The notes beneath the pieces are model-generated. The model saw only the letters and a list, made by a program, of their open reading frames with translations, was not told the origin of the DNA and ran no database searches. This document shows, piece by piece, positions 13,913 through 28,728 of a stretch of 64,000 nucleotides of DNA. Position numbers and translations under genes: made by a program. The stretch is from Nitrosopumilus sp. (lineage in GTDB: Archaea > Thermoproteota > Nitrososphaeria > Nitrososphaerales > Nitrosopumilaceae): assembly GCA_963662625.1 (NCBI GenBank), contig OY759726.1:704001-768000 (forward strand), in the 5' to 3' direction. Each line of letters starts with the position of its first letter. Within the stretch, counting starts at the first letter, position 1.

Positions 13913-13999
13913 CTAGTGCGGGTTCTTCCCGGACGGGTTTCCTGTCTTGCTGGCGCCGCCGGATTTGCCTTTCCCGCCGCCGCGTCCTGCCTTGGCCAT
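13913..13999 (-). CDS. 28-aa Gly/Lys-rich peptide
   Basis: GGAGGTGA Shine-Dalgarno just before the ATG; MAKAGRGGGKGKSGGASKTGNPSGKNPH. Confidence 0.5.
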   Translation of the reverse strand: MAKAGRGGGKGKSGGASKTGNPSGKNPH

Positions 14000-15424
14000 T
14001 ATTTCACCTCCCTTAGTTTCATATGTATTGTTACCCAAAATGCCTTTTAAGGAAAGCGGACAGTTGTGCGTGCTCCCTAGAGTGACGCTCACAAATAATT
14101 TCGCCTCCTGAATGGCCATACGGCAGCACGTCGCATGATCCGGCACGATCCACGGATTATGGCCCGGCCGTGCCGCTTGGAGTCCCTGCGCCCCAGCCTC
14201 CCCCGCCCACCGGTCGTGCTGGGCCGCCGTGGGCCTTACCCCCTGCACGATGTTCTCCCACCTGCGCGAGCGCGCGTGGTCCCCGGACGTCCCCTTGAAC
14301 GCCGACATGGTTATCCCGGTCGGCCGCCTCCTGCCGTACCCCTTCCTGGCCTCCCGGTACCGGGCATTCTCCTCCCTCTCCCTCGTGCCCGTCCTGCCGG
14401 CGCGCGCCTCCGGGCCGCCCCCCGGCCGGCCCCGCGCCGCCCCGCCCCACGCGCCGCCAGCGCCCCTGCCCCAGGCGGCGGGCGCCACCCTGGCCGGGAT
14501 GATCGGCCCCACGCCCATGCCGCGGCACCTCCGCACGTTGTCCCGCGACGCGTACGCCCCGTCCGCGATCAGGCGCGCCCCGCGGGGGCCGGGCGGCTGG
14601 CCGCACTGCAGCGCGAGCGGCGCCACGCCGCTCGCGGGGAGGTTGGGCGGGGGCGAGCCCGCGCGCGGCAGGGGATCCCCCGCCGCGGCGGCCTTCCCGC
14701 GGATCAGCGCCATGCGCCTGTCCTGCTTCCCGCCCTGCTTCCCCTCCTGCTTCCCGCCCTGCTTCCCGCCCTGCTTCCCCTCTTGCCGCTTCCCGTCACG
14801 CGGCCCCGCCACGGTTCCCAGGAGCTCCTTCAGCATGGGGGAGTCGCCCGTCCTGTCGTCGGTCACCACCGCCGCGGGCATCTTCTTCGTGTCGGCGTCG
14901 GCCAGCAGGTGCAGCCTGGCGAACCCGCGCCTCGCCTCCCGCTTCTTCCGTATCCACTCGCCCCGGTTGCACTGCTTCAGGCCGGTCGAGTCCGCCAGCA
15001 GGGTCATGGGCTGGCCGCCGCCGGAGACGCGGACGACTCCCCCGCCGATGCCCGCGCCGGGGCGCGCCATCCTCCTGGCCAGCACCGAGTAGTGCGGCGC
15101 GCCGCGCCCCCCCAGCATCCCCGCGAGGAGCCCGGACAGCTGCCTGTACTGGACCCCGAGCGAGGTCCTCACCGCGGCGGCGGCCATGACCAGCGCCCAG
15201 GCGTACCTGAACGGGGCGCCCTCCTTGCCGGCGTTGGCCTCCCTCAGGTCGTCCCCCGGCCGGGGCCATGCGACACCGCCAGGCCCCGCCCGCGCCTGGC
15301 GCATTTCTCGTTGTCGGTCGCAGCCAACGGGGACGGTGCGCGGCCGTGATCCAAGGCCTTTTCGGTTTGGCGTGGTTGGGCCCGGGGTTCAACTGTTCAG
15401 GCCCGGCAATTTCTGGCAGTTGTG

Positions 15425-16831
15425 CACCTATGTTAACCACTCAGGCGTAGTTGCCGCAATGCATCCCGCGGTTTTTCCGATCCGTGACTGGGTTGCATGG
15501 CATGAGATTTATAGCTAGCGCTGGCAAGACGATCCGGGATGCGGGCAGCGCGGGGGGCCGCCCCCGGCGCGCCTTCCCCGTCCCGGCCAGCTTGCGCCGG
15601 CACGGCCCCTCGTTGCGGGACTCGTAGGGTGTCTTGGTGGTCAGCATGTGCCACATTATGGTGACCATCTTGTGGGCCACCACCATGATTGCCGGCCCAT
15701 GCTTGTCCGCGTGCCTCCGGCGCGCGGACGCATACACGGCTTCCATCCTGGCGTCGTGCCGCACGGCGGTGTTCGCGGCCTCGCGCATGGCCCAGTTGAC
15801 CAGGCTGCCGGGGTCGATCTTCTTGATCCTCCCCGCGTACGGCCGGTTCCCCGACTGGCAGGCCGCCGGGCACAGCCCGGCCCACGACACCATCTGCCTT
15901 GGCCCCCTGAACCTGGAGACGTCCCCGATCCCGGGGGCCATCAGCACCGCGGTGAACGTGCCGACGCCGGTCATGCTGGCCAGCAGCCTCGCGTCACCGT
16001 TGTGGGCGGCCCCCGTCCCGGGGAGCCCCTCCGTCACGGAGATCTCCTCCGTCAGGTGCCTCACCTGCCGGGCGCACTGGCCCAGGACCAACCCGTCGTG
16101 CCCAGAGCCCGGCCCCGCGGATTCCAGCTGCCCCAGGGCCTTTTCGGAGTGCATGGTGGAGGCGTCCATTTGGATGTCGTGGCGGTCCAGGAGGCTGCGG
16201 GCGCGGCTTGTCACGCGCGTCCTGTCCCGGGCCAGCCTCACCCTCTGCCTGACCATCGCGCGTATCCCCCTGGTGTGGCCCGGGGGGACGTAGCACTCCG
16301 GTATCATGTCCATCCCCGGCACCTGCGCTATCTTCTCTGCGTCAATCCTGTCGGTCTTCTTGGCGGTCCTGGCTATCAGGGCCATCTTGTACGTGTTGGC
16401 CAGTTTGATGCCGGTCCCGGCCGCCTCGAAGGCGTCAAACGTCTTGTTCCACATGTTGCCAGTCGTCTCGCAGGCGGCCCTGCAGGGGCCGCCGCCCAGG
16501 TACCTGCGCGCCATCACCCCTGCGAACTTCGCCGCGCCGTCCCGGGTGTTGGGGTACTGCCCCCTCTCGAGAACCTTCCCGTTCCCGTCCACCACGCACG
16601 CGCCGCGCTTTCTCTTCCCCATGCCTGTCCCTATGCTTGTCTTTCTCATCCTTTCCTATCACCTCCTTTCGGATGTCTGACGGATCGGAAGCTGCACACA
16701 CCTATCAGGGCGCGAAGCCCAGTGACACGGCAGCTCGGATTGCCCCATTCAACAGAAAGGGCGCCAGGCCCACGCGCTACCAGGGGTCGATCCATCGGGG
16801 CAACTACGCCTGGGTGGTTATCATGTGTTCA
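15425..16831 (-). mobile_element. IS110-family element copy A (transposase 15441..16649)
   Basis: ACETTG, KTDRIDA, GVG, QSG motifs; CA core at both ends; reverse-complement match to 24472-25878. Confidence 0.92.
16679..16796 (-). ncRNA. Putative bridge RNA of IS110 copy A
   Basis: Reverse complement of 24507-24624. Confidence 0.7.
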
Positions 16832-16886
16832 ACAGACTACAGGCAAGGGTAATTATTAAAGCGCCGCCCGGTTTGCTTTATGGCTT

Positions 16887-17946
16887 TGTAGTAAATGCGG
16901 ATGTGGTCAATTGTACGGAAAGTCGGTCCGCGCCGGATCGAGAGGACTGTATCCGACTATTTTAGGCTGTACCGATCACGGAAGGCCATGACAGGAAGAC
17001 TTGCTGGGGGGTCCCGGAAGTACCTGGTCAGGCAGCGAGAGAAGGGCGTGCCGTCATCCCGGGTGGCGGCGGACCTGGGAATCACCGCCAGGCACGCACG
17101 GAGGATGCGGGCGAGGTTCCTGTAGACCGGAACGACGGTGGCTAGGATGGGCAGGCCGCGCGCCTGCATGAGTGCCGCCCAGATACGGCTGGCTACAGAC
17201 GCGCACCCGAGGCACCGGTGGGGGTGGTGCGCACCGCGAGGCGCCTCAGGAGGGGCCATGATATAAGCTACTGCTCCGCATGCCGGATACTGGAGAAGGC
17301 CGGGGCGGTGGCCGCGTCTGCCGCAAAACCGGGGAGGCGCGAGCGGGTGCGCTACGAGCGCAAATGCCCGGACGCCATGTGGCACGTCGACTGGCACGAG
17401 ATGAAGGACCCCCGGTTCAGGGGCCTCCAGCTGGTCGCGTACCTGGACGACGCCTCGCGGTGCGCGGTGGCCGCGCGCGTGTTCACGCAGGCCACGCCGG
17501 GGAACGCCGTGCTGGCGCTCAGGGACGCGATCGGGCGGTTCGGCACGCCGGCCACCGTGCTCCCCGGCAACGGCTCGTGCTTCGTGGGCCGGAACGGCCG
17601 CAGGAAGGCCCCTCCCCGGCCGTGGAAGCCCACCGCGTTCGAGGCGGAGCTGCCGGGCCTCGGGATCGAGCTCATAAACTCCAGGCCGCACCACCCCCAG
17701 ACCAACGGGAAGATCGAGAGGTTCTTCCGGAGCGTGGAGGACGGGACATGGCACTACGAGAGCATGTCCGAGTACATGGCGTACTACAACGAGGACAGGC
17801 CGCGCTTCTCCCTGGACATCGACAACTACCAGACCCCGCTGAAGGCCTTCCATGACAAGGAGGCCGTGGCAGCGATCAGGGAGAGCAACCCGGGATGGAT
17901 GGAGGCGGAGGCGGATGACTAGCGGACCGACTTTTCATATACTACA
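16887..17946 (+). mobile_element. IS481-family element with pseudogenised transposase
   Basis: Ends TGTAGTAAATG / CATATACTACA; WHVD, YLDDASR, PQTNGKIERF motifs; TAG at 17123-17125, frameshift near 17215, second Asp replaced (PGNG). Confidence 0.88.
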
Positions 17947-17995
17947 AAGACTGCGAATGTAAAACAAGTGATATATATTTGAAGGACACAATACA

Positions 17996-18640
17996 ATGGA
18001 ATTGGGCTTTATAGATATTTTCAAGAAAAGCAGGAGACAGATAAACAGGGAGAACCAAGAACAGGGTAGGAGGGGAGAGAGGCAAATCAGGGAAAAATAC
18101 GAGTTCTCTGGCCATGAGGTTGAAAGGACCGGCAGGGGCCACGACTTTAAGGTGTCTAAGACCAACTGGCTTACAGGTAAAAAAGAAATCAAATACGTAG
18201 AAGTCAAGACCGGCAATTCAAGGCAGTCGCCACTGCAGAAAAAAAAGATGAGGCGATTGGGCGAGAGGTATGTGGTGGAAAGGGTGGGCACTGGGCTGTT
18301 TGGGCTTGGATCTACCACCACATACGGCACTCCCAAGAACCCACCTGCTGGAACCTGGGGCCCGGGCTCCCTGCTGGGCGGATCCGCCCCGAGGAAGAAG
18401 AGGTCGGCCAAAAAGCCTTCCAGCAGCATCTGGGGCCCGGGCTCCCTGCTGGGCGGATCCGCCCCGAGGAAGAAGAGGTCGGCCAAAAAGCCTTCCAGCA
18501 GCATCTGGGAATCGCCAAAAAGGAAGAGCAATCCCGGAAGGAAGAGCCCAACAAAATCATCTGCCAGCATCTGGGGCTCGGGTGTCTCTACCAGAAGAAA
18601 GAGCAGGGCCAAAGGATCTGGTTTCGGGATGTGGTCCTAG
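17996..18640 (+). CDS. PD-(D/E)XK-type nuclease domain with a basic repetitive tail
   Basis: GRRGE..GHDF..YVEVKTG..SPLQ, then WG...KK repeats. Confidence 0.6.
   Translation: MELGFIDIFKKSRRQINRENQEQGRRGERQIREKYEFSGHEVERTGRGHDFKVSKTNWLTGKKEIKYVEVKTGNSRQSPLQKKKMRRLGERYVVERVGTGLFGLGSTTTYGTPKNPPAGTWGPGSLLGGSAPRKKRSAKKPSSSIWGPGSLLGGSAPRKKRSAKKPSSSIWESPKRKSNPGRKSPTKSSASIWGSGVSTRRKSRAKGSGFGMWS
18355..18509. repeat. Perfect 75-bp in-frame tandem duplication
   Basis: 18355-18429 equals 18430-18504, encoding WGPGSLLGGSAPRKKRSAKKPSSSI twice. Confidence 0.9.
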
Positions 18641-19146
18641 CTCTAGGTAACGCAATACAGGTTTATTGGCACACTCTTGCCACTATCTAGTTGCAGGTGA
18701 CTGTATGGACCATGTACGTGGCAGGCTTTCAGGTCGCTGCCAGCTGCGCATCCGACTTGGCGTGGCCTAGGCCATTAGCGGCCTGGGCGGCAGGCACGCA
18801 TGGCAACTAACGTCACGATTAATATTTTGCACTGCACCACACAAGGATACGCAAGGACGAGGACATGGCAGAAAAACACCCCAGAAAGGGCAGGAGGTGC
18901 CAGCACAGGCATTCGCAAGGACGACTCCCAGTCCGTGGGAAGCCGTCACCAACGAACGGCAGAGGGGCGAGTACCATGCCGCACGTGGGGAGGCGGACTG
19001 GTCTTCGTAGGCCGCACTCTAGGGGGACGATTGGATGCTCCCACCTTTATGCCACCACGGGGGGCGTTATTAGTGCAGAAAATGCGGACATGTGCTGAAT
19101 GTAAGGAACGTGGGTAAGGCCACGGTGCCCGGATCAGGCTACAGAC

Positions 19147-19335
19147 GTGTGGCTTGATAGCACGTCGGGGTTGGGCTTTGAGGGCATCTGCAGCACCATC
19201 TTCGGCAGGTGCGGGTTCAAGACTAAGAAGATTGGCGGCACCTCCGACGGCGGACACGACATACTGGTTTGGGGAGATTCAGGCAAGATGGTCGTGGAGT
19301 GCAAGCACCAAGAAAAGAAGGCGGGGCGGCCTTAG
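19147..19335 (+). pseudogene. Mrr-like restriction endonuclease fragment
   Basis: SGLGFE..GF..SDGGHDI..VVECKH..GRP followed by a premature stop. Confidence 0.65.
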
Positions 19336-19608
19336 GCCGAAGTCCGGGGGGCGCGAGGTTGACGGGGAAACGCTTGACGGCCATCCCGAACCCAAGGTCA
19401 CGGCGGGGCGAAGACGTCGGGAGGGGGACCTGCGTGGCGGGGCCATCTCCGAATCGGGGCGCTCCGTGCCAGCCGCCGCCGGGCCGGATCCGGTCAGGCT
19501 TGCAGCCGACTCCAAAAGAGCGCGGCGGGGCGTCGGCCGATCCCCCTCAGTGGGGCCGGATCCGGCGCGCGGGTACTCGCTTTAAATATTCCCGCGCCAG
19601 ACCTTGGC

Positions 19609-20542
19609 CATGACGGCTGCCCGAAAGGACGGCGGGTACGAGGATCCCGCGCCGGACGACGTGATCGACGAGATCGAGGACCGTATGGGCGACGACGATC
19701 TTGCCGGCGCCCTGCTTGCAACAAACAGGGAACTGGCGAGGACGCCGGACAGCATAGAGCTCCACTCCCTGAAGGGCGAGATCCTCTCCAGCACGGGGAG
19801 GTACGGCGAGGCGTCGGCCGCGTATGACCGGATCCTGGAGTTGGAGCCGGACGATCCGGAGGCGTGGATCCACAAGAGCTTCGTCTTTTTAGCGCTGGAC
19901 CGCCCCGAGGACAGCCTGGATGCAGCAGACAGGGCGATTGGGCTTGGCCTGGACGACTCCGTGGCTCTGGTGGCGAGGGCCGAGGCGCTGCTGGAGCTGG
20001 GAAGGCACGGCGAGGCGATGAAGGTAGTCAACGACGTGCTCGCGGGGGACCCGGGGCACGTCGACGTGCTGGGCCTCGAGGCCGAGATCCTCTCGGCGAT
20101 GGGCAGGCATGGCGAGGCCGCGGCCCTGCTGGAAAAGCTTTCGGGCTGGGATCCGGGGTCGGCCGAGGCGCTGGTCCTGCTCTCCGGCGAGCACATGATG
20201 GCGGGGGACTTTGGGAGGGCCCTGGAGGTCGCAGACAGGGCCGTGGCGCTCGACGGGGACGATCCCGCGGCATGGGAGATCAAGGGCGCGTCGCTATACG
20301 AGCTTGGCAGGCCGGAGGAGGCCCTGGAGTGCATCCTGAATGCCCAAGACATGGATCCTGCAGGCGGCGAGACGTGGTACCAAAAGGCAAGGATCCTCGC
20401 TGGCGGCGAGCGGGACGGGGCGCTTGACGCCCTTCTTGTGGCCGTCTCGATAAATCCCGACAACAAGAAAAGGGCTGGCGCGGACGGGTCGTTTGCGGGC
20501 CTCCGGCAGGACGCGAGGTTCAAGAAGATGACCGGCCCCTAG
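19609..20542 (+). CDS. Tetratricopeptide repeat protein (start approximate)
   Basis: Repeated AW..KG..L..LGR.EEAL...D.P units. Confidence 0.85.
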
Positions 20543-20724
20543 CGGGATCCCGGGGCGCGGGGGCCGCGGTGCCGGGCGGCCTGCGCGCATGGCCGGCCCA
20601 AGAAGGGGGCACCGCATCCCAAAGACGGAAAGGCCGTCAGCCGTGGCGCGATCGCTGCGTGCGGGGGCAGGCGGGCAGCTGCCCGGGGGCAGGCCGGAGG
20701 GCGCTGGCCGCGGGCTCCCCGGCG

Positions 20725-22218
20725 TCATACTAGGACGAGGAAGAGAGGAACGGGGATCATCGTGCGCCCGTTCTTCGCCGAGAGATCACGCTTTGTCAGC
20801 ACCAGCCCCTCGGAGACGCCGCTGGCCTTCTTAAAGTCAATCAGCCCCTGCAGGTCGCCGGAACCAATCTGGTTTTGGTACTTTACTTCCACGGGGATCG
20901 TCCGATCGCCGGGGTATATGACAAAGTCCACCTCGCGGCCGCCGCCTCCCCGCCAGTAGGACACCGATTCCCGGTAGTCAAAGCTCATCCTAAACCTGCT
21001 CAGGCCGAAGGCAAGCCTTACAGAGTGATCCGCGACCACGTTCTCGACGAGCTTGCCGGTCAGGGCCTCGTCCTGGAGCGCCTTCAAGGAGAATTCAAAG
21101 GGCTCTTCCCTGCGGCTCATGGCGTTCAGTGCGTGGAAGAAGAACGGGTCCTGAAAGTAGATTTTCTTCGGCGATGGGTGGTGCGGCCGCCTCTGCTTGG
21201 CGTCGTACCTGTGCATGTATAATAGCACGAACGCGCCGGAGAGGGTCTTCGTATAATCCTCCACGGTGTGGTGGCTTCCCACGTCCGTGCCTTTTTTGAG
21301 CGACTGCCAAGAGGTCGGGGAGCACAGGCTCCGGACATAGTTGGGGGTCAGCTGCGGGAGGTAGTCCCCCCTGTGAACGCGCCCCATGTCCCCCTTGATG
21401 GAGTCCAGGCACGTGTGGTAAGTCGACGCGGGGATGTTCCCGTTTTCCAATAGATCGTTGACGGCCGGCGGGACGCCCCCCGTAATCAGGTAGTTCCCGA
21501 AGTGCTTGTCCAGGGCGTCCTGGTATGCCGAAAGCGAGGCGACGGTGCCGTCGATCTCGCCCCCAAGCAGGGCATCCAGCAGGTCGTGGCGGGTCGACAG
21601 GGCATGCATGTCGTTGTCTTTGATGAATTTCCCGAGTTCGGGATCCACCGACGAGACGTACTCGGCGAATTTCATCGGGGGCATGATCTTGTCCAAGGAA
21701 TCGCCCTGTGCGGCCCCCCTTCTGCCCGGCATCTGTTCCCCGCCCGGCCTCAAGTCAGCAGAGTGGGAGCCTGCCGCAATCACGGTGCAGTTGTCCAGCT
21801 TGCCCCGGTCCTTGAGTTTTTTGATGGCGTTTTGCCAGCCTTGAATGTTTGAAATTTCGTCAAGAAACAGGATGGCCCTGCTGCCTTTTCTGAACGGCGC
21901 GCTCCTGTCAAGGTACGCGCCGACCACGCCGGAGACGTCCGCGGGAGATCTCTCCACGTCAAACGAATAGTACATGAGGGTCCACGGATCCCGCCCCTCC
22001 CGGAGGCGCTCCCTGATCATCAGCTTGGCCATGGTCGTCTTGCCCACCTGCCTGGGCCCGCGAAGCGTGTAGATCAGATCCTCCTCAAGGAATTTTTTTT
22101 GGATCCTGGGTTTCCACTTTAGCGCGGAGTCCTCCCAACGGCGTATGGAGTGGTCGCCATCGATTGCTGCAGGATCCTTCCACCACGGGTTATATCCCAG
22201 CAGCTCGTTATATGACAT
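20725..22218 (-). CDS. AAA_14 ATPase with DUF4143 and a C-terminal nuclease-like motif
   Basis: NPWW, GPRQVGKTT, LFLDEI, YLITGG.P, KKIYFQDP, EVDFV..PVEVK. Confidence 0.88.
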   Translation of the reverse strand: MSYNELLGYNPWWKDPAAIDGDHSIRRWEDSALKWKPRIQKKFLEEDLIYTLRGPRQVGKTTMAKLMIRERLREGRDPWTLMYYSFDVERSPADVSGVVGAYLDRSAPFRKGSRAILFLDEISNIQGWQNAIKKLKDRGKLDNCTVIAAGSHSADLRPGGEQMPGRRGAAQGDSLDKIMPPMKFAEYVSSVDPELGKFIKDNDMHALSTRHDLLDALLGGEIDGTVASLSAYQDALDKHFGNYLITGGVPPAVNDLLENGNIPASTYHTCLDSIKGDMGRVHRGDYLPQLTPNYVRSLCSPTSWQSLKKGTDVGSHHTVEDYTKTLSGAFVLLYMHRYDAKQRRPHHPSPKKIYFQDPFFFHALNAMSRREEPFEFSLKALQDEALTGKLVENVVADHSVRLAFGLSRFRMSFDYRESVSYWRGGGGREVDFVIYPGDRTIPVEVKYQNQIGSGDLQGLIDFKKASGVSEGLVLTKRDLSAKNGRTMIPVPLFLVLV

Positions 22219-22227
22219 CACGCGCCG

Positions 22228-22312
22228 CTGCCAGTCCCTTTATAAGCATGGTTTTCTGAACTGCCAGTCCTTTTATAACCATTGGTGCCAACTGGTGCCA
22301 GTTCATTTATAA
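22228..22312. promoter_or_regulatory. Three TGCCAGTyCnTTTATAA repeats containing TATA boxes, in a divergent promoter region
   Basis: Copies at 22228-22245, 22261-22278 and 22295-22312. Confidence 0.65.
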
Positions 22313-22334
22313 ATCAACATGAAAGGCAGGGCCC

Positions 22335-22475
22335 ATGGTGGTGCCAAGGGAGGGCATCAGGGCATGCATGAAGTGCGGGTGCGTGTACTCGGAGATATCG
22401 TCGAACAACGCAATGAGGTGTCCCGTCTGCAAGAACATGCTGGGGGAGAAGATCGGCATAGTCCGGAACGGCTGA
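22335..22475 (+). CDS. 46-aa zinc-ribbon protein
   Basis: CMKC..CPVC; TTTATAA about 25 nt upstream. Translated by hand. Confidence 0.6.
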   Translation: MVVPREGIRACMKCGCVYSEISSNNAMRCPVCKNMLGEKIGIVRNG

Positions 22476-22597
22476 CGCGGTGATCGGTCGCGGCACCGCC
22501 GAGGGGCCGCTGTGGCAGGCCGGCCGCGGCTCCAAGCCGCACGGCGGTGTAAAAAACAGCCGTAAACAGTTATAATTACAGCGGCGAGACCCCAAGC

Positions 22598-23146
22598 ATG
22601 GAAGAGACCTCCGTGTTCCCCGGGGACAGGATAGCCTCCATAGAGGAGTACGAGGCGGGCCACAACGCCTTTGACGACGGCGACATGGTCCGCGCGGCCA
22701 CCATAGGCAGCGTCGACATAGACCGGGAGACGCGCGTCGCGAGCATCAAGCACCCCAAGGGCCAAGCCATGCCGAGGGTCGGCGACACCGTCATCGGCAC
22801 GGTCAGCGCCGTGATGTCGTCGATGTTCGCGGTGATAATAGACTACATCAACGGCAAGCCGACCGTGTCCAAGGTGGAGTGCATCTGCTCGACGCGGGAC
22901 GCCCGGAGGAGGAACGTCGCGCTCGCAAACGACATAGTCGCGCTGAAGATCCTCAACCACCTCAACGGCACGATACACGCCACCGTGGACGAGCCCCAGC
23001 TGGGGGTCCTGTTCACAAAGTGCAGGAAGTGCGGCGGCGAGGTGGTCCAGATGCGCGACGCCATAAAGTGCAAGGAGTGCGCGTGGATCGACGACAGGAA
23101 GCTCTCAAGGAAGTTCGGCAACGGCGACTTTGTGAGACTGGGATGA
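22598..23146 (+). CDS. csl4: Exosome complex RNA-binding protein Csl4
   Basis: VFPGD..EEY, S1 domain, LGVLFTKCRKC..CKEC..RKLS. Confidence 0.9.
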   Translation: MEETSVFPGDRIASIEEYEAGHNAFDDGDMVRAATIGSVDIDRETRVASIKHPKGQAMPRVGDTVIGTVSAVMSSMFAVIIDYINGKPTVSKVECICSTRDARRRNVALANDIVALKILNHLNGTIHATVDEPQLGVLFTKCRKCGGEVVQMRDAIKCKECAWIDDRKLSRKFGNGDFVRLG

Positions 23147-23958
23147 TCCGCGTCTCGTTCCAGGGGGAGCGTGGCGCGTACAGCGAGGCTGCCGCAAGGT
23201 CGTTCTTCGGGGGGGAGATCGAGGCCGTCCCCACGCAGACGTTCGCCGAGGCCCTCGAGCGCGCCTCGTCCGGGGATACCGGCTACGCCGTGCTCCCGGT
23301 GGAGAACTCGCTGGAGGGGAGCGTGGGGGAGAGCTACGACCTGCTGTACCTGACGGACCTCAGCGCGGTGGGCGAGACGTACCACAGGATAGAGCACTGC
23401 CTGATCGGGACCGGCAGGCTGGGGGGCATCGGGACCGTGTACTCGCACCCGCAGGCGCTGGGCCAGTGCAGGGGGTTTATCGAGAGAAACGGCATGAAGA
23501 CAGTGCCCGCGTACGACACCGCGGGGAGCGTGAAGATGATAAAGTCGATCGGCCGGGAGGACGTGGCCTGCATAGCGAGCAGGGAGGCGTCCGGGATCTA
23601 CGGCGTCCCAGTGGTGGCAAGCGACATCGCGAACAACCCCAACAACTACACCCGGTTCCTGGTGCTGTCCGGGGGGGCCAGCCCGGAGACCGGCAGCGAC
23701 AAGACGTCGGTGATATTCTCCATAAAGCACGAGCCGGGCTCCCTGTTCAGGGTGATAGGGAGGTTCCACGCGAGCGGCGTGAACCTCACCAAGATAGAGT
23801 CCAGGCCGGCCGGGACGGACGCCTGGGAGTACATATTTTACGTGGACTTTGAGGGGCACGCCGACAGCCCCGGCATCGCGGAGATGCTCAGGGGACTGGA
23901 GGCGGACACGGTCTCCCTGAAGGTGCTCGGCTCGTACCCCTCGGCCAGGCGCGGCTAG
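23143..23958 (+). CDS. pheA: Prephenate dehydratase
   Basis: FQGERGAYSE, PVENSLEGSV, SHPQALGQC, NYTRF, LTKIESRP. Confidence 0.95.
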   Translation: MIRVSFQGERGAYSEAAARSFFGGEIEAVPTQTFAEALERASSGDTGYAVLPVENSLEGSVGESYDLLYLTDLSAVGETYHRIEHCLIGTGRLGGIGTVYSHPQALGQCRGFIERNGMKTVPAYDTAGSVKMIKSIGREDVACIASREASGIYGVPVVASDIANNPNNYTRFLVLSGGASPETGSDKTSVIFSIKHEPGSLFRVIGRFHASGVNLTKIESRPAGTDAWEYIFYVDFEGHADSPGIAEMLRGLEADTVSLKVLGSYPSARRG

Positions 23959-24419
23959 AAGCCCCTGGGCCTCCTCAGCGTAAAGGCCGTGCTGAACCCG
24001 ATGATCACCACGCCGGACGTTATCACGATGATGTGGTAGGTGAACAGGATCGGGTCGGTGGTGATCTCGAAGGTGGCGTCCACCACCACGTCCGACGGGC
24101 CGGTGTTGCGCACGTTGATGTACGTGACGCCGTCCTGGGCGTGGCTCCATTCCTGGTAGGCCTCCCCCTCGAACGAGTCGGTGATGTCCAAGCCGCCGGC
24201 GGGGCTCTTGAGCACGAGCTCAAAGCTGTCGCCCGTGATCCCCATCTTCTGGGTGCCGCCCCGATCGGAGGTGACCTGGTACGAGGTGAACTCCCCCGGC
24301 CCGAGCGTGTCGCTGACCGGCACCACCTGGAGGCCGACGTCGGAGACGAACGAGAACACCCCGATGGCTATGATCCCTACCCCGATGATCATCCCGACGA
24401 CCGTCCACTTTGATATCAT
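23955..24419 (-). CDS. Hypothetical membrane protein with N- and C-terminal TM helices
   Basis: MISKWTVVGMIIGVGII... is the plausible 3' part of shadow ORF 23955..25655. Confidence 0.75.
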   Translation of the reverse strand: MISKWTVVGMIIGVGIIAIGVFSFVSDVGLQVVPVSDTLGPGEFTSYQVTSDRGGTQKMGITGDSFELVLKSPAGGLDITDSFEGEAYQEWSHAQDGVTYINVRNTGPSDVVVDATFEITTDPILFTYHIIVITSGVVIIGFSTAFTLRRPRGF

Positions 24420-24471
24420 GGTGTGGAGTCCCCGCGCGCCGCTTAAAAAACTAGCTCCGCGCGTAGTCTGT

Positions 24472-25878
24472 TGAACACATGATAACCACCCAGGCGTAGT
24501 TGCCCCGATGGATCGACCCCTGGTAGCGCGTGGGCCTGGCGCCCTTTCTGTTGAATGGGGCAATCCGAGCTGCCGTGTCACTGGGCTTCGCGCCCTGATA
24601 GGTGTGTGCAGCTTCCGATCCGTCAGACATCCGAAAGGAGGTGATAGGAAAGGATGAGAAAGACAAGCATAGGGACAGGCATGGGGAAGAGAAAGCGCGG
24701 CGCGTGCGTGGTGGACGGGAACGGGAAGGTTCTCGAGAGGGGGCAGTACCCCAACACCCGGGACGGCGCGGCGAAGTTCGCAGGGGTGATGGCGCGCAGG
24801 TACCTGGGCGGCGGCCCCTGCAGGGCCGCCTGCGAGACGACTGGCAACATGTGGAACAAGACGTTTGACGCCTTCGAGGCGGCCGGGACCGGCATCAAAC
24901 TGGCCAACACGTACAAGATGGCCCTGATAGCCAGGACCGCCAAGAAGACCGACAGGATTGACGCAGAGAAGATAGCGCAGGTGCCGGGGATGGACATGAT
25001 ACCGGAGTGCTACGTCCCCCCGGGCCACACCAGGGGGATACGCGCGATGGTCAGGCAGAGGGTGAGGCTGGCCCGGGACAGGACGCGCGTGACAAGCCGC
25101 GCCCGCAGCCTCCTGGACCGCCACGACATCCAAATGGACGCCTCCACCATGCACTCCGAAAAGGCCCTGGGGCAGCTGGAATCCGCGGGGCCGGGCTCTG
25201 GGCACGACGGGTTGGTCCTGGGCCAGTGCGCCCGGCAGGTGAGGCACCTGACGGAGGAGATCTCCGTGACGGAGGGGCTCCCCGGGACGGGGGCCGCCCA
25301 CAACGGTGACGCGAGGCTGCTGGCCAGCATGACCGGCGTCGGCACGTTCACCGCGGTGCTGATGGCCCCCGGGATCGGGGACGTCTCCAGGTTCAGGGGG
25401 CCAAGGCAGATGGTGTCGTGGGCCGGGCTGTGCCCGGCGGCCTGCCAGTCGGGGAACCGGCCGTACGCGGGGAGGATCAAGAAGATCGACCCCGGCAGCC
25501 TGGTCAACTGGGCCATGCGCGAGGCCGCGAACACCGCCGTGCGGCACGACGCCAGGATGGAAGCCGTGTATGCGTCCGCGCGCCGGAGGCACGCGGACAA
25601 GCATGGGCCGGCAATCATGGTGGTGGCCCACAAGATGGTCACCATAATGTGGCACATGCTGACCACCAAGACACCCTACGAGTCCCGCAACGAGGGGCCG
25701 TGCCGGCGCAAGCTGGCCGGGACGGGGAAGGCGCGCCGGGGGCGGCCCCCCGCGCTGCCCGCATCCCGGATCGTCTTGCCAGCGCTAGCTATAAATCTCA
25801 TGCCATGCAACCCAGTCACGGATCGGAAAAACCGCGGGATGCATTGCGGCAACTACGCCTGAGTGGTTAACATAGGTG
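24472..25878 (+). mobile_element. IS110-family element copy B (transposase 24654..25862)
   Basis: TG core at 24472-24473 and 25877-25878; 26-bp subterminal IRs at 24479-24504 and 25848-25873; translation identical to copy A. Confidence 0.92.
24507..24624 (+). ncRNA. Putative bridge RNA with target- and donor-binding loops
   Basis: Closing stem GATGGATCG/CGATCCGTC; two arms, each with GGGC-N5-GCCC followed 2 nt later by a 7-mer matching the target (TCTGTTG) or the donor (ATAGGTG). Confidence 0.72.
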
Positions 25879-27294
25879 CACAACTCGGCACGATCCCCGG
25901 GCCGTGGCCAGGCCGTGCCGCTTGGAGTCCCTACGCCCCCGCCTCACCCGCCCACCGGTCGTGCTGGGCCATCCTGAGCCTTGCCTCCTGCACGATGTTC
26001 TCCCACCTGCGCGAGTGCACGTGGTCCCCGAACATCCTCTTGAACGCCGATATGATTATCTCGATCAGCCACCTCCTGCCGTACCCCTTCCTAGCCTCCC
26101 GGTACCGGACGTTCTCCTCCCTCTCCCTCGTGCCCACCCTGCCGGCGCGCGCCTCCGGGCCGCCCCCCAGCTGGTCCCGCACCGCCTCGCCCCACGCGCC
26201 GCCGGTGCCCTTGCCCCTGGCGGTGGACGCCACCTTGACCGGGATGATAGGCCCCACGCCCATGTCGCGGCACCTCCGCATGTTGTCCCGCGACGCGTAC
26301 GCCCCGTCCGCGATCAGGCGCGCCCCGTGGGAGCCGGGCGGCTGGCCGCACTGCAGCGCGAGCGGCGCCACGCCGCTCGCGAGGAGGTTGGGCGGGGGCG
26401 AGCCCACGCGCGGCAGGGGATCCCCAGCCGCGGCTGCCTTCCCGCGGATCAGCGCCATGCGCCTGTCCTGCTTCCCCGCCGGCTTCCCGTCCGGCTTCCC
26501 GCCACGCGGCTCCACCACGGTTCCCAGGAGCTCCTTCAGCATGGGGGAGTCGCCCGTCCTGTCGTCGGTCACCACCGCCGCGAGTATCTTCTTCGTGTCG
26601 GCGTCGGCCAGCAGGTGCAGCTTGACGAACCCGCGCTTCACCTTCCACTTCTTCCGTATCCACTCGCCCCGGTTGCACTGCTTCAGGCCCGTGGCGTCGG
26701 CCAGCAGGGTCATGGGCTGGCCGCCGCCGGAGACGCGGACGACTCCCCCGCCGATGTCCACGTCGAGGCGCGCCATCCTCCTGGCCAGCACCGAGTAGTG
26801 CGGCGCGCCGTGCCCCCCCAGCATCCCCGCGAGGAGCCCGGACAGCTGCCTGTACCGGGCCCCGAGCGAGGTCCTCACCGCGGCGGCGGCCATGACCAGC
26901 GCCCCGGCGTACCTGAACGGGGCGCCCTCCTTGCCGGCGTTGGCCTCCCTCAGGTCGTCCTCCCAGCCGGGGTCATACGACACAGCCAGGCCCCTCCCGC
27001 GCCTGACGTATTTCTCGTTGTCGGTCGCAGCCAACGGGGACGGTGCGCGGCCGTGATCCAAGGCCTTTTCGGTTTGACATGGTTGGGCCGGGGGTTCAAC
27101 TGTTTAGACCCGGCAATTTCTGGCAGTTGTGCAACAGACTACCGCGCGATGCGTTCCCGGGAGGCGGCGCGGGGGGCCTGGGACCTGGCATACCTACCAC
27201 AGACACAGGAAACTAGCGGATCGATGTGGCTATCCACGGACTCGCACGTCAGTGTTACCCATGCCCAGTCAGAAAATCCTAGAAGCTGCAGGCC

Positions 27295-28728
27295 TTACAT
27301 CAGCGACACGTCGTGGGGCTGGCTTTCCGCGAACCCGGCCCTAGACATCTTGATGAACTCGGCGTTTGCCTGCATCTGCGGGATGGTGTGGGCGCCGCAG
27401 TAGCTCAGCCCGGAGCGGATGCCGCCCGTCAGCTGCTTCAGCATGTCGGTGACCGTCCCCTTGTAGGGGACCATCGCCTCCACGCCCTCGGCCACGTAGT
27501 CGTTGAGGTCGTCGTCAAGGGAGATCGTCCCGGTCTCCTTTGACTTCCTCCCGATGGAGGCCGCCAGGGACGCCATCCCGCGGTAGACCTTGAAGCGCTT
27601 TCCGTTCTTTGTCAGCACCATTCCGGGCGACTCGTCGGTCCCGCCCAGCATGCTCCCAACCATCACGCTCGAGGCGCCGGCTGCCAGCGCCTTCGTGGCG
27701 TCGCCGGAGTTCCTGGTGCCGCCGTCGGATATTATCGGGATGCCGCTGTCGTTGCCCACCCGGGCGCAGTCCACCACGGCGGTAAGCTGGGGCACGCCGG
27801 ATCCCGTGATGACGCGGGTGATGCAGATGGAGCCCGAGCCGACGCCGACCTTGACTGCGTCGACGCCAGCCTTGATCAGGTCGTCGGCCCCCCTGGCGGT
27901 GGCGACGTTCCCGGCAATCAGCTCGCAGCCGGGAAACGCCTTCTTTATGTTGCGCACGGTGTTGACCGCGTTCTCGCTGTGCCCGTGCGCAATGTCCACC
28001 ACCAGCACGTCCGCCCCGGCGTCCAGGATGGCCTCGGCCCTCTCCAAAAAGTCCCCCTTCACGCCGACCGCCGCCCCCACTAGCGGGCGGCCCTTCCCGT
28101 CCTTGGAGGCGGACGGGTAGTCCTCCGTGTTCGTTATGTCCTTGGACGTGACCAGCCCCCTCGCGACCCCGGAGTCGTCCACCAGCGGGAGCTTCTCGAT
28201 CCTGTGCTTGTGGAGGATGCGCTTCGCCTCGTCAAGGGAGATGCCCGGCCTGGCGGTGACGACGTCCTTGGTCATGACGTCCCTGATCGGCGTGTCCATG
28301 TTCGACTCAAGCAGCAGGTCCCTGGCAGTGACTATCCCCACCAGCTTGGAGTCAGAGTCGGTCACCAGGATGCCCGAGATGCCCTTGTCCGTGGCATAGT
28401 CGATCGCGTCCAGGATGGCCTTGTCCTGGCCTATGGAGTACGGGTTCTCTATCATGACGCTGCCGGATCGCTTGACCTTGAGTACCTCGCTTACCTGCTC
28501 CCTGATGGTCAGGAACCTGTGGATGATCCCGATGCCCCCCGCCCGGGCCATCGCCACGGCCATGGCGGACTCTGTGACGGTGTCCATGTTGGCGCTTACT
28601 AGCGGTATGTTGATCGAGATGTTCCGCGACAGCCTTGTGCTCAGGTCCGTCTGGGTGCGGCTGGTGATGTCAGAATACTTGGGGACTAGGAGAACATCGT
28701 CAAACGTCAACCCCTCCCTGAATTCCAA
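27295..28728 (-). CDS. guaB: IMP dehydrogenase
   Basis: LTFDDVLL, SANMDTVT, CBS pair, VGVGSGSICITR, YRGM; probable TTG start. Confidence 0.96.
   Translation of the reverse strand: MEFREGLTFDDVLLVPKYSDITSRTQTDLSTRLSRNISINIPLVSANMDTVTESAMAVAMARAGGIGIIHRFLTIREQVSEVLKVKRSGSVMIENPYSIGQDKAILDAIDYATDKGISGILVTDSDSKLVGIVTARDLLLESNMDTPIRDVMTKDVVTARPGISLDEAKRILHKHRIEKLPLVDDSGVARGLVTSKDITNTEDYPSASKDGKGRPLVGAAVGVKGDFLERAEAILDAGADVLVVDIAHGHSENAVNTVRNIKKAFPGCELIAGNVATARGADDLIKAGVDAVKVGVGSGSICITRVITGSGVPQLTAVVDCARVGNDSGIPIISDGGTRNSGDATKALAAGASSVMVGSMLGGTDESPGMVLTKNGKRFKVYRGMASLAASIGRKSKETGTISLDDDLNDYVAEGVEAMVPYKGTVTDMLKQLTGGIRSGLSYCGAHTIPQMQANAEFIKMSRAGFAESQPHDVSLM

Follow-up and report, generated by a model that had tools for sequence, protein, structure and literature searches.

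Two identical IS110-family insertions within IS5 end repeats

The window (the whole stretch of 64,000 nucleotides of Nitrosopumilus sp. contig OY759726.1 that was analysed) carries two copies, A and B, of an IS110-family element, nested in the end repeats of two IS5-family elements, IS5-A and IS5-B:

14134-15426, plus strand: body of IS5-A, an old copy with a decayed left end repeat and a right repeat split by IS110 copy A (outer part at 16830-16839)
15427-16829, minus strand: copy A of the IS110-family element (1403 bp, the same sequence as copy B)
15441-16649, minus strand: recombinase ORF of copy A, with an identical 402-aa product
24464-24473, plus strand: outermost 10 bp (TAGTCTGT plus TG) of the IS5-B left end repeat, severed from the rest by IS110 copy B
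24474-25876, plus strand: IS110-family element copy B, 1403 bp, bounded by its identity to copy A and by an 8-copy genomic alignment
24479-24504, plus strand: left sub-terminal inverted repeat of copy B, ATGATAACCACCCAGGCGTAGTTGCC, separated from the element end by 5 bases, or by 7 when one core TG is assigned to the element
24654-25862, plus strand: recombinase ORF of copy B, 402 aa (Pfam DEDD_Tnp_IS110, 2.2e-17; Transposase_20, 1e-16)
25790-25796, plus strand: TATAAAT, a motif resembling a TATA box, within the right end of copy B
25848-25873, plus strand: right sub-terminal inverted repeat of copy B, GGCAACTACGCCTGAGTGGTTAACAT, 3 bases from the element end
25877-27141, plus strand: rest of IS5-B, with its transposase ORF on the minus strand (25931-27061) and an intact right end repeat (27125-27141)

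The reverse complement of copy A matches copy B at 1403/1403 bases (100% identity). Copy B has the core TG on both sides (24472-24473 and 25877-25878), in the context CCGCGCG (24457-24463)-TAGTCTGT (24464-24471)-TG-copy B-TG-CACAACT (25879-25885); copy A has CA on both sides (15425-15426 and 16830-16831; TG when read on the strand of the element), in the context AGTTGTG (15418-15424)-CA-copy A-CA-ACAGACTA (16832-16839). The target of both is the TG within the IS5 end repeat TAGTCTGT-TG-CACAACT, and both have the same orientation relative to it, the IS110 left end abutting the outer 8 bp plus TG, although they occupy opposite ends of two diverged IS5 copies. The preliminary description had claimed exactly this arrangement, and our reading of the sequence bears it out.

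The two hosts, IS5-A and IS5-B, are 90-93% identical. IS5-A (75% GC) is old and decayed, and its second end repeat is no longer recognisable; IS5-B is 97-98% identical to other genomic IS5 copies. The intact end of IS5-B, AGTTGTGCAACAGACTA at 27125-27141, is followed by CCGCGCG (27142-27148), and this direct repeat, present also at 24457-24463, encloses the entire nested structure of IS5-B, so that the duplication is preserved as had been described. The host element has an IS5-type DDE transposase, short terminal inverted repeats and a target duplication, all features of IS5: the IS5-B transposase matches Pfam DDE_Tnp_1 (5.9e-21), DDE_Tnp_1_5 and the NCBIfam IS5-family model NF033579 (160.3 bits, cut-off 140), the end repeats of the host copies are a perfect 17 bp, and the duplications are of 8 bp at six copies and 7 bp at IS5-B. 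The genome also holds a MITE of about 85 bp, which has no IS5 body and an end repeat near-identical to that of IS5; it is derived from the resident IS5-family element.

As is usual in the IS110 family, the inserted element has no terminal inverted repeats and the 2-base core is identical on both sides of the insert. Its sub-terminal inverted repeats pair at 24/26 bases (24479-24504 with 25848-25873; two mismatches), and outside them lie extensions: on the left TG+AACAC, 7 bases with one core included, and on the right the 3 bases AGG. The TATAAAT motif reads outward and, after excision, would read across the circle junction; relatives from four other genomes have GCTATAAAT or GCTTTAAAG at this position, and decayed copies have the altered form CCATGAAT. 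It may be the archaeal counterpart of a junction promoter.

Site and orientation of insertion across the genome

By blastn the genome contains 27 matches to the IS110 element, 8 of them full length. TAGTCTGTTG (with at most one mismatch) directly abuts the left end in 9 of the 15 matches that retain this end, which is not chance, and in all 8 full-length copies; of the 14 matches that retain the right end, 6 continue into the inner half of an end repeat, either of IS5 or of the MITE. These six, together with one truncated copy, make up seven insertions with identical TG and orientation, four in IS5 ends and three in MITE ends, each in its own, different genomic context. The left end of the host is occupied in IS5-B, and the right end in IS5-A and in the IS5 copies at genome positions 1195697 and 1774526. 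TG flanks both sides in 7 of the 8 full-length copies, the exception (genome 1699637) having AG on the right.

The specific targeting of IS5 end repeats claimed in the preliminary description holds for these seven insertions, with MITE ends added to the targets, but not for every copy: in three of the eight full-length copies (genome 17308, 1507277 and 1699637; the oldest, at 87-88% identity) repeat-like sequence is present on the left only and the right flank is unique, so that the question it had raised, whether other copies lie in unrelated targets, is answered partly in the affirmative. The copy at 1699637 also has different guides, which do not match its own flanks. The empty end repeats that were to be looked for do exist, there being 14 perfect 17-mer IS5 ends still empty genome-wide.

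A predicted guide RNA at the left end

The left end of the element, 180 nt of non-coding sequence, is predicted to encode a bridge/seekRNA-like RNA with two internal loops, in which we recognise the following parts (copy B; copy A positions in brackets):

24507-24624, plus strand: predicted bridge/seekRNA core, a basal stem around target-binding and donor-binding modules (16679-16796, minus)
24522-24530, plus strand: right target guide GGUAGCGCG (16773-16781, minus)
24547-24553, plus strand: left target guide UCUGUUG, equal to TCTGT+TG of the outer half of the repeat (16750-16756, minus)
24574-24578, plus strand: right donor guide (C/U)GUGU, pairing with left-end bases 2-6, ACACA (16725-16729, minus)
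24598-24604, plus strand: left donor guide AUAGGUG, which repeats the 5 terminal bases of the right end followed by TG (16699-16705, minus)

The consensus structure, obtained with RNAalifold from 12 sequences of five genomes, has 31 pairs, with 96.2% of cells paired and compensatory changes at 7 pairs; the observed values are equalled or exceeded in 0-1 of 500 shuffles, and pairing in slid controls amounts to 23-49%. Folded by itself, the sequence does not outperform shuffled versions in minimum free energy (z = -0.49), and Rfam gave no match for the left-end RNA. A covariance model (R1) gave 63 hits in 63 related loci from Nitrosopumilaceae/Nitrososphaerota MAGs, nearly all directly upstream of a recombinase gene. 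An alignment fitted to this model (A3) supplied the loop registers; for the guide counts 7 of the 63 hits were dropped, leaving 56 usable, and of these 36 were dropped for right ends, the right end being located in 20 of 56.

The target guides covary with the DNA around each element. The left target guide matches its own left flank at 127/195 positions (61.4 when shuffled; 0/20000 shuffles; 39 distinct variants), and the right target guide pairs with its own right flank at 67/91 positions (39.4 when shuffled; 0/20000 shuffles; 13 distinct guides). In the donor loop, the three left donor guide variants (ATAGG, ATAGA and ATGGA) each match their own right end at 7/7 positions, and the right donor guide tracks the left end, UGUCU occurring with left end AAGACATG and UGUAU with AATACATG (one relative); the permutation test for this guide is weak, as there is little variation (28/30 against 24.2; 685/20000). 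The right target guide of the window copies is a closer fit to the repeat of the MITE (TGCGCAACC) than to that of IS5 (TGCACAACT; two mismatches and two wobbles); against the left guide, the left half of the MITE repeat (TAGTTTGT) shows a single C:A mismatch. Inspected by eye, the right non-coding end of about 130 nt gave weak target matches only. The modelled RNA would have the complementarity to target and element ends that characterises the IS110 family, and guidance by RNA, which the preliminary description had stated for the family, gains support here from the conserved two-loop structure and from guides covarying with flanks and element ends.

A decayed recombinase and a possible helper copy

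The recombinase has the IS110-family domain layout, DEDD_Tnp_IS110 at the N-terminus and Transposase_20 at the C-terminus, for which the window copy scores 63.7 and 61.5 bits and a copy outside the window, at genome 1194294-1195696, 98 and 78.2 bits; the latter also matches NCBIfam NF033542, 'IS110 family RNA-guided transposase', with 242.9 bits (cut-off 140). In an alignment with this 363-aa copy (c1194k) and relatives from three other genomes, the columns invariant in the relatives are D9, E61, D100, D103 and S266 (intact-copy numbering), which would correspond to the catalytic residues of IS621. The copy at 1194294-1195696 has every one of them, and its recombinase is apparently intact. The window copies keep all but D9 and so lack the full Asp/Glu/Asp/Asp plus Ser set, the first catalytic Asp being lost by a change of GIDIGK to GTGMGK (Asp to Gly); their ancestral stop (after codon 363, 25743-25745) has become CGG, and the frame extends into the right end of the element.

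The RNA and the element ends of the window copies are preserved despite this decay, A/T sites being changed at 1/128 in the non-coding ends against 43/386 in the ORF (p=4e-5). Because their own recombinase has lost the Asp and the stop while RNA and ends are intact, the window copies, which are non-autonomous derivatives, were most likely mobilised in trans by the recombinase of the intact copy. The contrast of decayed recombinase and preserved RNA and ends is a clean natural pointer to the parts that act in cis; and since the copy at genome 1194294-1195696 is apparently intact, experimental reconstitution could be carried out without the transposase repair that had been envisaged.

Proposed mechanism and alternative explanations

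We propose that this is, very probably, an IS110-family (DEDD recombinase) insertion sequence with IS1111-type sub-terminal repeats and a left-end bridge/seekRNA which guides its insertion into IS5 and MITE end repeats. The element would be transcribed and would excise as a circle; in the RNA, the right and left target guides of the target loop would pair with the two strands around the TG in the 17-bp IS5 repeat or the MITE repeat, and the donor loop would carry one guide for the right end of the element together with TG and another for its left end. The recombinase-RNA complex could then pair the circle junction (..ATAGG-TG-AACAC..) with the repeat TAGTCTGT-TG-CACAACT, and strand exchange at the TG would place the element 10 bp inside the tip of the host IS, in a single orientation. 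Since both ends of an IS5 are formed by one sequence, in inverted order, either end is open to insertion, and copies A and B illustrate this. The split repeat would probably block transposition of the host IS5 until the element excises, a process that could switch a resident IS5 off and perhaps, reversibly, on again, which bears on the genome biology of ammonia-oxidisers.

The 100% identity of the window copies could also point to a single ancestral IS110-in-IS5 composite, spread by duplication, by IS5 transposition with its passenger or by gene conversion; IS copies within one genome do undergo conversion, and the shared AT-to-GC changes are nested among the copies. We consider this very unlikely, as one IS5 is occupied at its left end and three at their right; host IS5 copies are 90-98% identical whereas their passengers are 100% identical; direct repeats (7-8 bp) and flanks differ from host to host; three insertions lie in ~85-bp MITEs with no IS5 body; an IS5 whose end repeat is split would hardly transpose as a unit; and relatives with other guides occupy other repeats. 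That the nesting is an assembly artefact of collapsed repeats is scarcely credible: repeats of 1.3-1.4 kb are hard to assemble and the public runs, four of which were compared with the window as assembled contigs, offer short contigs only, but the genome is one contig, 99.5% complete, the seven separate junction pairs are all base-precise, and the same nesting is found in named MAGs of other genera. One contig of public run X2 (record 10) spans unique flank, split repeat and element, and another (record 13) spans the element right end and the inner repeat half, although both weigh little as this run may be the source sample.

Two further possibilities concern the left flank. One, to which we give very little weight, is that the recombinase protein itself recognises the repeat, in the manner of classical site-specific recombinases, and that the predicted left-end structure is no more than a leader or regulatory RNA. 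In its favour, the 10 bases of TAGTCTGTTG conserved in 8/8 full-length copies extend beyond the 7 bases matched by the guide; against it, guides covary with flanks across 39 left and 13 right variants (0/20000 shuffles), two copies within one genome (G016) differ in their loop and correspondingly in their flank, and the family is RNA-guided by experiment (PMC11208160 and PMC11187229). The other, very improbable, is that TAGTCTGTTG belongs to the IS110 element, whose true left end would lie 10 bp further out with a secondary likeness to the IS5 repeat. This would explain the left 10-mer in the three old copies with unrelated right flanks, but deleting 1403 bp and one TG restores a perfect 17-bp repeat that the direct repeats of IS5 bracket to the base (CCGCGCG at IS5-B; 8 bp at genome 1194k and 1774k). 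Moreover the 10-mer varies by host (TAGTTTGTTG in MITEs), and relatives have wholly different left flanks directly against the same AACACATG end.

Relation to known IS110 and IS1111 elements

Targeting the end repeats of other transposons is a known strategy of bacterial IS1111-group elements. IS4321 and IS5075, of this group, reportedly target the 38-bp end repeats of Tn21-family transposons (described, it is said, by Partridge and Hall in 2003). The archaeal element resembles them as a DEDD-recombinase IS with sub-terminal inverted repeats that sits at a fixed position and in one orientation in the end repeat of another transposon, such that either end can be occupied. It differs in its archaeal host, in its targets (a MITE and insertion sequences of the IS5 and IS66 families, where the bacterial elements use Tn3-family transposons), in having its guide RNA upstream of the recombinase gene and in a sub-terminal repeat of about 26 bp. 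It is an archaeal form of the known IS4321/IS5075-type targeting. A search of full texts by term found no published description of a thaumarchaeal case, and the habit, known from bacteria, appears undescribed in archaea.

IS1111 of Coxiella burnetii inserts into QMITE2 (PMC5896051), and the IS-carrying MITE copies are more diverged; this is likewise an IS1111-group element landing in a short repeated mobile element, but its target is a REP-like palindrome inside the MITE, whereas here it is an end repeat common to the autonomous IS5 and the MITE.

The bridge RNA of IS621 (PMC11208160) and the seekRNAs of ISEc11, ISKpn4 and ISPa11 (PMC11187229) share with the archaeal RNA the position in an element end, separate target and donor loops, a bottom-strand guide for the left and a top-strand guide for the right in each loop around a 2-base core, and natural reprogramming among relatives. 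The archaeal RNA lies in the left end, which is the IS110-group placement, and its right guide precedes its left guide in both the target and the donor loop; a top-strand guide first in each loop is the IS1111 order given in PMC11187229, which also mentions a few mixed IS110/IS1111 cases, such as ISMtsp17. Sub-terminal repeats of the IS1111 group, quoted as 7-17 bp (PMC11208160) or usually 11-13 bp (PMC11187229), are present but at 26 bp exceed both ranges, and the asymmetric extensions of 7 bp on the left and 3 bp on the right (PMC11187229) agree. The long downstream non-coding region with guide RNA of the IS1111 group is not found; the RNA is upstream in 12/12 aligned sequences and in the related loci.

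Conservation of the habit in relatives

Relatives were found only in Nitrosopumilaceae/Nitrososphaerota records, and the genome contains an archaeal amoA, an ammonia-oxidiser setting which confirms the archaeal context supposed at the outset. The targeting habit, now seen in archaea, is conserved across genera with different guides, and its targets here are insertion sequences instead of transposons of the Tn3 type. We regard the chances as evenly balanced that a clade of such recombinase elements with bridge RNAs, known to date only from Nitrosopumilaceae and archaeal ammonia-oxidisers related to them, lives as specialised transposon parasites, its guide loops repeatedly reprogrammed onto IS5- and IS66-family end repeats and MITEs, and here including non-autonomous derivatives moved in trans with selection on guide RNA and ends alone. 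If true, this would be a three-level parasitic hierarchy of host, IS5, and IS110 master with riders. Among the relatives, one compact archaeal bridge RNA (core of about 120 nt) also occurs naturally in many variants, at least 39 of the target loop and 3 of the donor loop, each with matching DNA sites; this is raw material for the pairing rules of an IS1111-like RNA in a left end.

A relative in G016, the genome whose two copies with differing loops have correspondingly differing flanks, is inserted 18 bp into an IS66-family end repeat, and empty copies of that element are also present. At nine loci from four other MAGs, IS5-like transposase sequence lies just to the right of the element.

Nested insertions in IS5 end repeats

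Reading the window sequence reproduced every coordinate that the preliminary description had assigned to two IS110-family elements (copies A and B), which split the end repeats of two resident IS5-family elements (IS5-A and IS5-B, respectively).

Features of the two nested insertions
15427-16829, - strand: IS110 copy A, between CA 15425-15426 and CA 16830-16831; outside reads AGTTGTG-CA ... CA-ACAGACTA
24474-25876, + strand: IS110 copy B, between TG 24472-24473 and TG 25877-25878; inside TAGTCTGT-TG ... TG-CACAACT
27125-27141: undisturbed end repeat of IS5-B, reading AGTTGTGCAACAGACTA
24457-24463 and 27142-27148: CCGCGCG, outside IS5-B on both sides

Copies A and B are identical at 1403/1403 positions; each holds a 402-aa ORF in which Pfam recognises the domains DEDD_Tnp_IS110 and Transposase_20, and the host elements encode DDE_Tnp_1 transposases scoring above the NCBIfam IS5-family cut-off. 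The mutual identity of IS5-A and IS5-B is just 90-93%, and IS5-A has no recognisable repeat at its other end, so the identical inserts were not derived by duplicating a single nested unit.

In IS5-B, the insert cuts the 17-bp repeat so that its outer 10 bp are parted from the remainder. Since the IS5-B ORF still resembles those of other IS5 copies, IS5-B is plausibly disabled by this insertion alone; IS5-A was either dead already at insertion or has died since. The longest ORF over IS5-A (window 13913-15304, - strand; 463 aa) extends from the decayed element into its flank and matches IS5 transposase domains over only its first ~165 residues; it is a fused or decayed frame, and no functional transposase.

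Target sites across the genome

The source genome is a single contig of 1.86 Mb (genome coordinates refer to this whole contig) and encodes an archaeal AmoA (2.0e-117), which identifies the host as an ammonia-oxidising archaeon. It gave 27 blastn matches to copy B, 8 of them full length with 87.5-100% identity. The sequence TAGTCTGTTG, with at most 1 mismatch, directly abuts the left end in 8/8 full-length copies and in 9 of 15 matches with a preserved left end. On the right side, the inner half of the IS5 repeat lies next to 3 full-length copies, and the inner half of a ~85-bp MITE repeat (TAGTTTGTTGCGCAACT.. / ..GGTTGTGCAACAAGCTA) lies next to 2 full-length copies and 1 fragment; a fourth IS5 holds a shortened copy at genome 1774206.

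The preliminary description had proposed that this element specifically targets IS5 ends. When the flanks of all genomic copies were collected, 7 insertions (4 in IS5, 3 in the MITE) shared one TG position and one orientation, the left end of the element meeting the outer part of the repeat. Three full-length copies, the oldest (genome 17308, 1507277 and 1699637), depart from this and have unique sequence on the right. The flanks are individual to each of the 7 insertions, as is the 7-8-bp IS5 target duplication, and both IS5 ends serve as insertion sites. The three oldest copies have kept the left 10-mer beyond the demand of a 7-base guide. Empty sites are also present, as 14 perfect 17-base repeats remain unoccupied in the genome.

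The ~85-bp MITE serves the IS110 element as an alternative landing site, and is also found empty at several loci. Members of the family lie at genome 1153758-1153837, 1543609-1543681, 700434-700509 and elsewhere; their end repeats (TAGTTTGTTGCGCAACT / TAGCTTGTTGCACAACC) are close to those of IS5, and they are presumably mobilised by the IS5 transposase.

Public contigs from 4 DNA or unknown-type runs of one study were compared with window 24000-26400. They showed no joints across this interval, and their loose ends were the flanks of other genomic copies and of empty IS5 ends; one loose end from run X1 (agreement 0.65) is absent from the genome at up to 4 mismatches.

Of the shortened copy (genome 1774206-1774530), 325 bases remain at the left end; the deletion starts at an internal GCGCA and extends 6 bases past the right end, into the IS5 repeat, with short microhomology at the joint. 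At genome 1194269-1194293 (locus L020, about 1296-1320), a 15-bp tandem duplication (CCTAATAGTCTGTTG twice), comprising 5 bp of the IS5 target duplication and the outer 10 bp of the repeat, abuts the apparently intact IS110 copy on its left; a similar partial repeat adjoins the copy at genome 1508668, also on the left.

Ends and architecture of the element

The element has no inverted repeats at its very tips. Instead, an imperfect 26-bp inverted repeat is set in by 5 bases on the left (7 when one TG is taken as part of the element) and by 3 on the right, in agreement with the 7/3 geometry of the IS1111 group described in PMC11187229. Non-coding stretches of 180 bases 5′ of the ORF and about 130 past the ancestral stop flank the coding sequence; this stop is TGA in the genome 1194294 copy and CGG in the window copies, by which their frame is extended to 402 aa.

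An outward-facing TATA-like motif in the right end (25790-25796), conserved in relatives and destroyed in the most decayed copies, may drive transcription over the junction of an excised circle, which would read ..AACATAGG-TG-AACACATG... Two copies in a related genome (loci L004 and L022 in G008) have the left tip ATTCATTT.. in place of AACACATG, and their guide UCAUUUG matches the sequence as far as the sub-terminal repeat; this may reflect an exchanged left tip or a moved boundary.

A predicted guide RNA in the left end

Left ends of three copies from the source genome (G000) were aligned with homologues from four related genomes (G016, G008, G001 and G002), whose recombinases are 45-60% identical to the window protein, giving 12 sequences. 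The RNAalifold consensus is a basal stem around two modules of like design, each with a short stem, an asymmetric internal loop and a capping hairpin. In this consensus 96.2% of cells are paired and 7/31 pairs have two-sided changes, values reached by 0-1 of 500 column shuffles; pairing falls to 23-49% once the partners are shifted by 1-3 columns. Single-sequence folds were no better than shuffles for the left end (z = -0.49) or the right (z = +0.66) and are uninformative, so that the comparative structure alone is informative. An Rfam scan of 24300-27300, with E up to 1, gave no match. The right non-coding end, the usual place for the guide RNA in IS1111 elements, was also considered; by eye it held just short matches (UGCAAC, AGUC) without conserved structure, and the left end was preferred.

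Guide segments of the predicted RNA in copy B
24522-24530: first loop, 5′ side, GGUAGCGCG; complements TG+CGCAACC
24547-24553: first loop, 3′ side, UCUGUUG; same as TCTGT+TG
24574-24578: second loop, 5′ side, (C/U)GUGU; complements bases 2-6 of the left end
24598-24604: second loop, 3′ side, AUAGGUG; same as the right-end tip + TG

These four segments follow the guide logic of the bridge RNA of PMC11208160, where the left guide serves the bottom strand and the right guide the top strand, for target and donor alike; the order of guides within a loop is that of IS1111-type seekRNAs as presented in PMC11187229.

A second guide subfamily is present in the source genome (1699637-1701037, 15962-16034 and 1229946-1230215), with target-loop guides GUA(U/C)GGUG with CGCCAUG or GCGCAUG. 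Its full-length copy at 1699637 has the left flank of the first subfamily (TAGTCTGTTG) and AG, not TG, on the right side, which suggests a recombinant or rearranged origin.

Covariation of guides with flanking DNA

Within G016 the loops change together with the DNA that they would pair with: GGUCGUG occurs with flank ..CGTCGTG in 3 copies and UUUUGUG with ..ATTTGTG in a fourth, and right ends terminating in ATAGA go with loops AUAGAUG. We gathered further relatives by scanning a species-representative genome collection with the recombinase alignment and two clade-specific peptide patterns; within a scan so limited, 66/66 loci returned were Nitrosopumilaceae, Nitrosopumilales or Nitrososphaerota records. 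A covariance model made from the 12-sequence alignment gave 63 hits across the 63 loci searched, 56 of which were usable (loops complete and left flank present). Loop registers were taken from the model-fitted alignment, and hits without complete loops and left flank, or without a located right end, were excluded. Right ends were located in 20/56 loci by a generic end motif with the same core next to it; this rule superseded the sub-terminal repeat alone (10/56) and a stricter version (6/56).

For the left target guide, the five bases on the 5′ side of the core agree with their own left flank at 127/195 positions, against 61.4 when shuffled (0/20000; 39 distinct target-loop variants), and the right target guide pairs with its own right flank at 67/91 positions, against 39.4 (0/20000; 13 distinct guides). 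The left donor guide occurs in three variants, each equal to its own right end (7/7), and the right donor guide shifts with the left end (AAGACATG with UGUCU; AATACATG with UGUAU); permutation tests of the donor guides, on 6 variants, are weak (right donor 685/20000, left donor 1951/20000). The guide-flank signal is so large that we hold RNA guidance of the IS110 element, which the preliminary description gave for the IS110/IS1111 family, to be well supported by this covariation.

Association of the clade with other mobile elements

Relatives with other guides also land in mobile elements. The G016 flank GTAAGTGTTTACGTCG-TG followed by CCTAGA.. is the end of a ~1.5-kb element that encodes an IS66-family transposase (NF033517, 217.1 bits, cut-off 180), carries an inverted copy of this end on its far side and has an 8-bp duplication; by an 18-base pattern, at least 7 such ends are empty in G016 and 3 are occupied.

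Landing site of the G016 relative
Locus L037, 1500-3017: IS66-family element; end repeats begin GTAAGTGTT; 8-bp duplication AAAAAAAC

A 3.2-Mb Nitrosopumilaceae MAG carries a 49%-identical relative in ten copies, whose left flanks read TAG(C/T/A)CTGTTG and whose right flank, TGCATAACC, agrees with their own guide; the site is an IS5-like end, entered at the same TG. Using tblastn with the window IS5 transposase, IS5-like coding sequence was found to begin at most about 250 bases right of the element at 9 loci in 4 MAGs, with any hit in 14/66 loci. The G008 copies (L004, L022) lie inside a short repeat bordered by inverted repeats CTGTGTCCTACA. The association with other mobile elements is thus conserved in the clade while the guides differ.

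IS1111-group elements that target the end repeats of Tn21-family transposons are already in print. An IS1111 inserted in a Coxiella MITE (PMC5896051), IS110 elements targeting REP sequences (PMC12288879) and archaeal IS110 recombinases as such (bioRxiv 10.1101/2024.06.21.599552) have also been described. Our full-text literature search, which covered the main text of openly available articles, found no description of a Thaumarchaeota/Nitrososphaerota IS110-family element targeting an IS end repeat. By the features of its protein and predicted RNA the element belongs to the IS110 family; its repeats, the geometry of its ends and the order of its guides are IS1111-like, but its RNA is at the left end. 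The insertions first noticed in the IS5 end repeat are confirmed, and their interpretation is supported by the 7 genomic insertions and by guide covariation; we consider RNA-guided targeting of the IS5/MITE end repeat highly probable.

Decay and probable mobilisation in trans of the window copies

The copy at genome 1194294-1195696 encodes 363 aa, as in relatives, and keeps all invariant columns including GIDIGK. In the window copies this motif reads GTGMGK, so that the first Asp is lost, and there are further replacements at conserved positions. All 44/44 differences from the intact copy are A-to-G or T-to-C toward the window copy, and they affect 43/386 A/T sites in the ORF against 1/128 in the non-coding ends (p=4e-5); the RNA core differs at 1/118 positions. 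This decayed lineage is present at at least 3 sites, the two in the window and genome 476458, which has more changes. Mobilisation in trans, with selection on the cis-acting parts alone, would be the simplest reading of a decayed ORF with kept RNA and ends, and we think it rather probable that the window copies moved in this way; gene conversion is a possible alternative origin for the decayed copies.

The direction of these changes also calls for an explanation. A-to-G hypermutation aimed specifically at repeats would give such one-sided divergence, but the host genes are already at a median GC3 of 0.89, for which reason we rate it below a strong AT-to-GC bias that affects the whole genome and acts where codon positions 1-2 are unconstrained. 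This genome-wide bias is the likeliest source, and leaves unaccounted for two features of the changes: they often form T(N2)A to C(N2)G pairs, and the copies share them in a nested pattern.

Nearly all IS110 divergence from the intact copy is A-to-G or T-to-C (window 44/44, 476458 89/90, 17308 199/210, 1507277 186/212), and the GC of the copies climbs from 63% to 77.5%. The changes are clustered, with 24 gaps of at most 5 nt against 6.2 expected (0/5000 permutations). The IS5 copies have diverged in the same A-to-G / T-to-C direction, more weakly.
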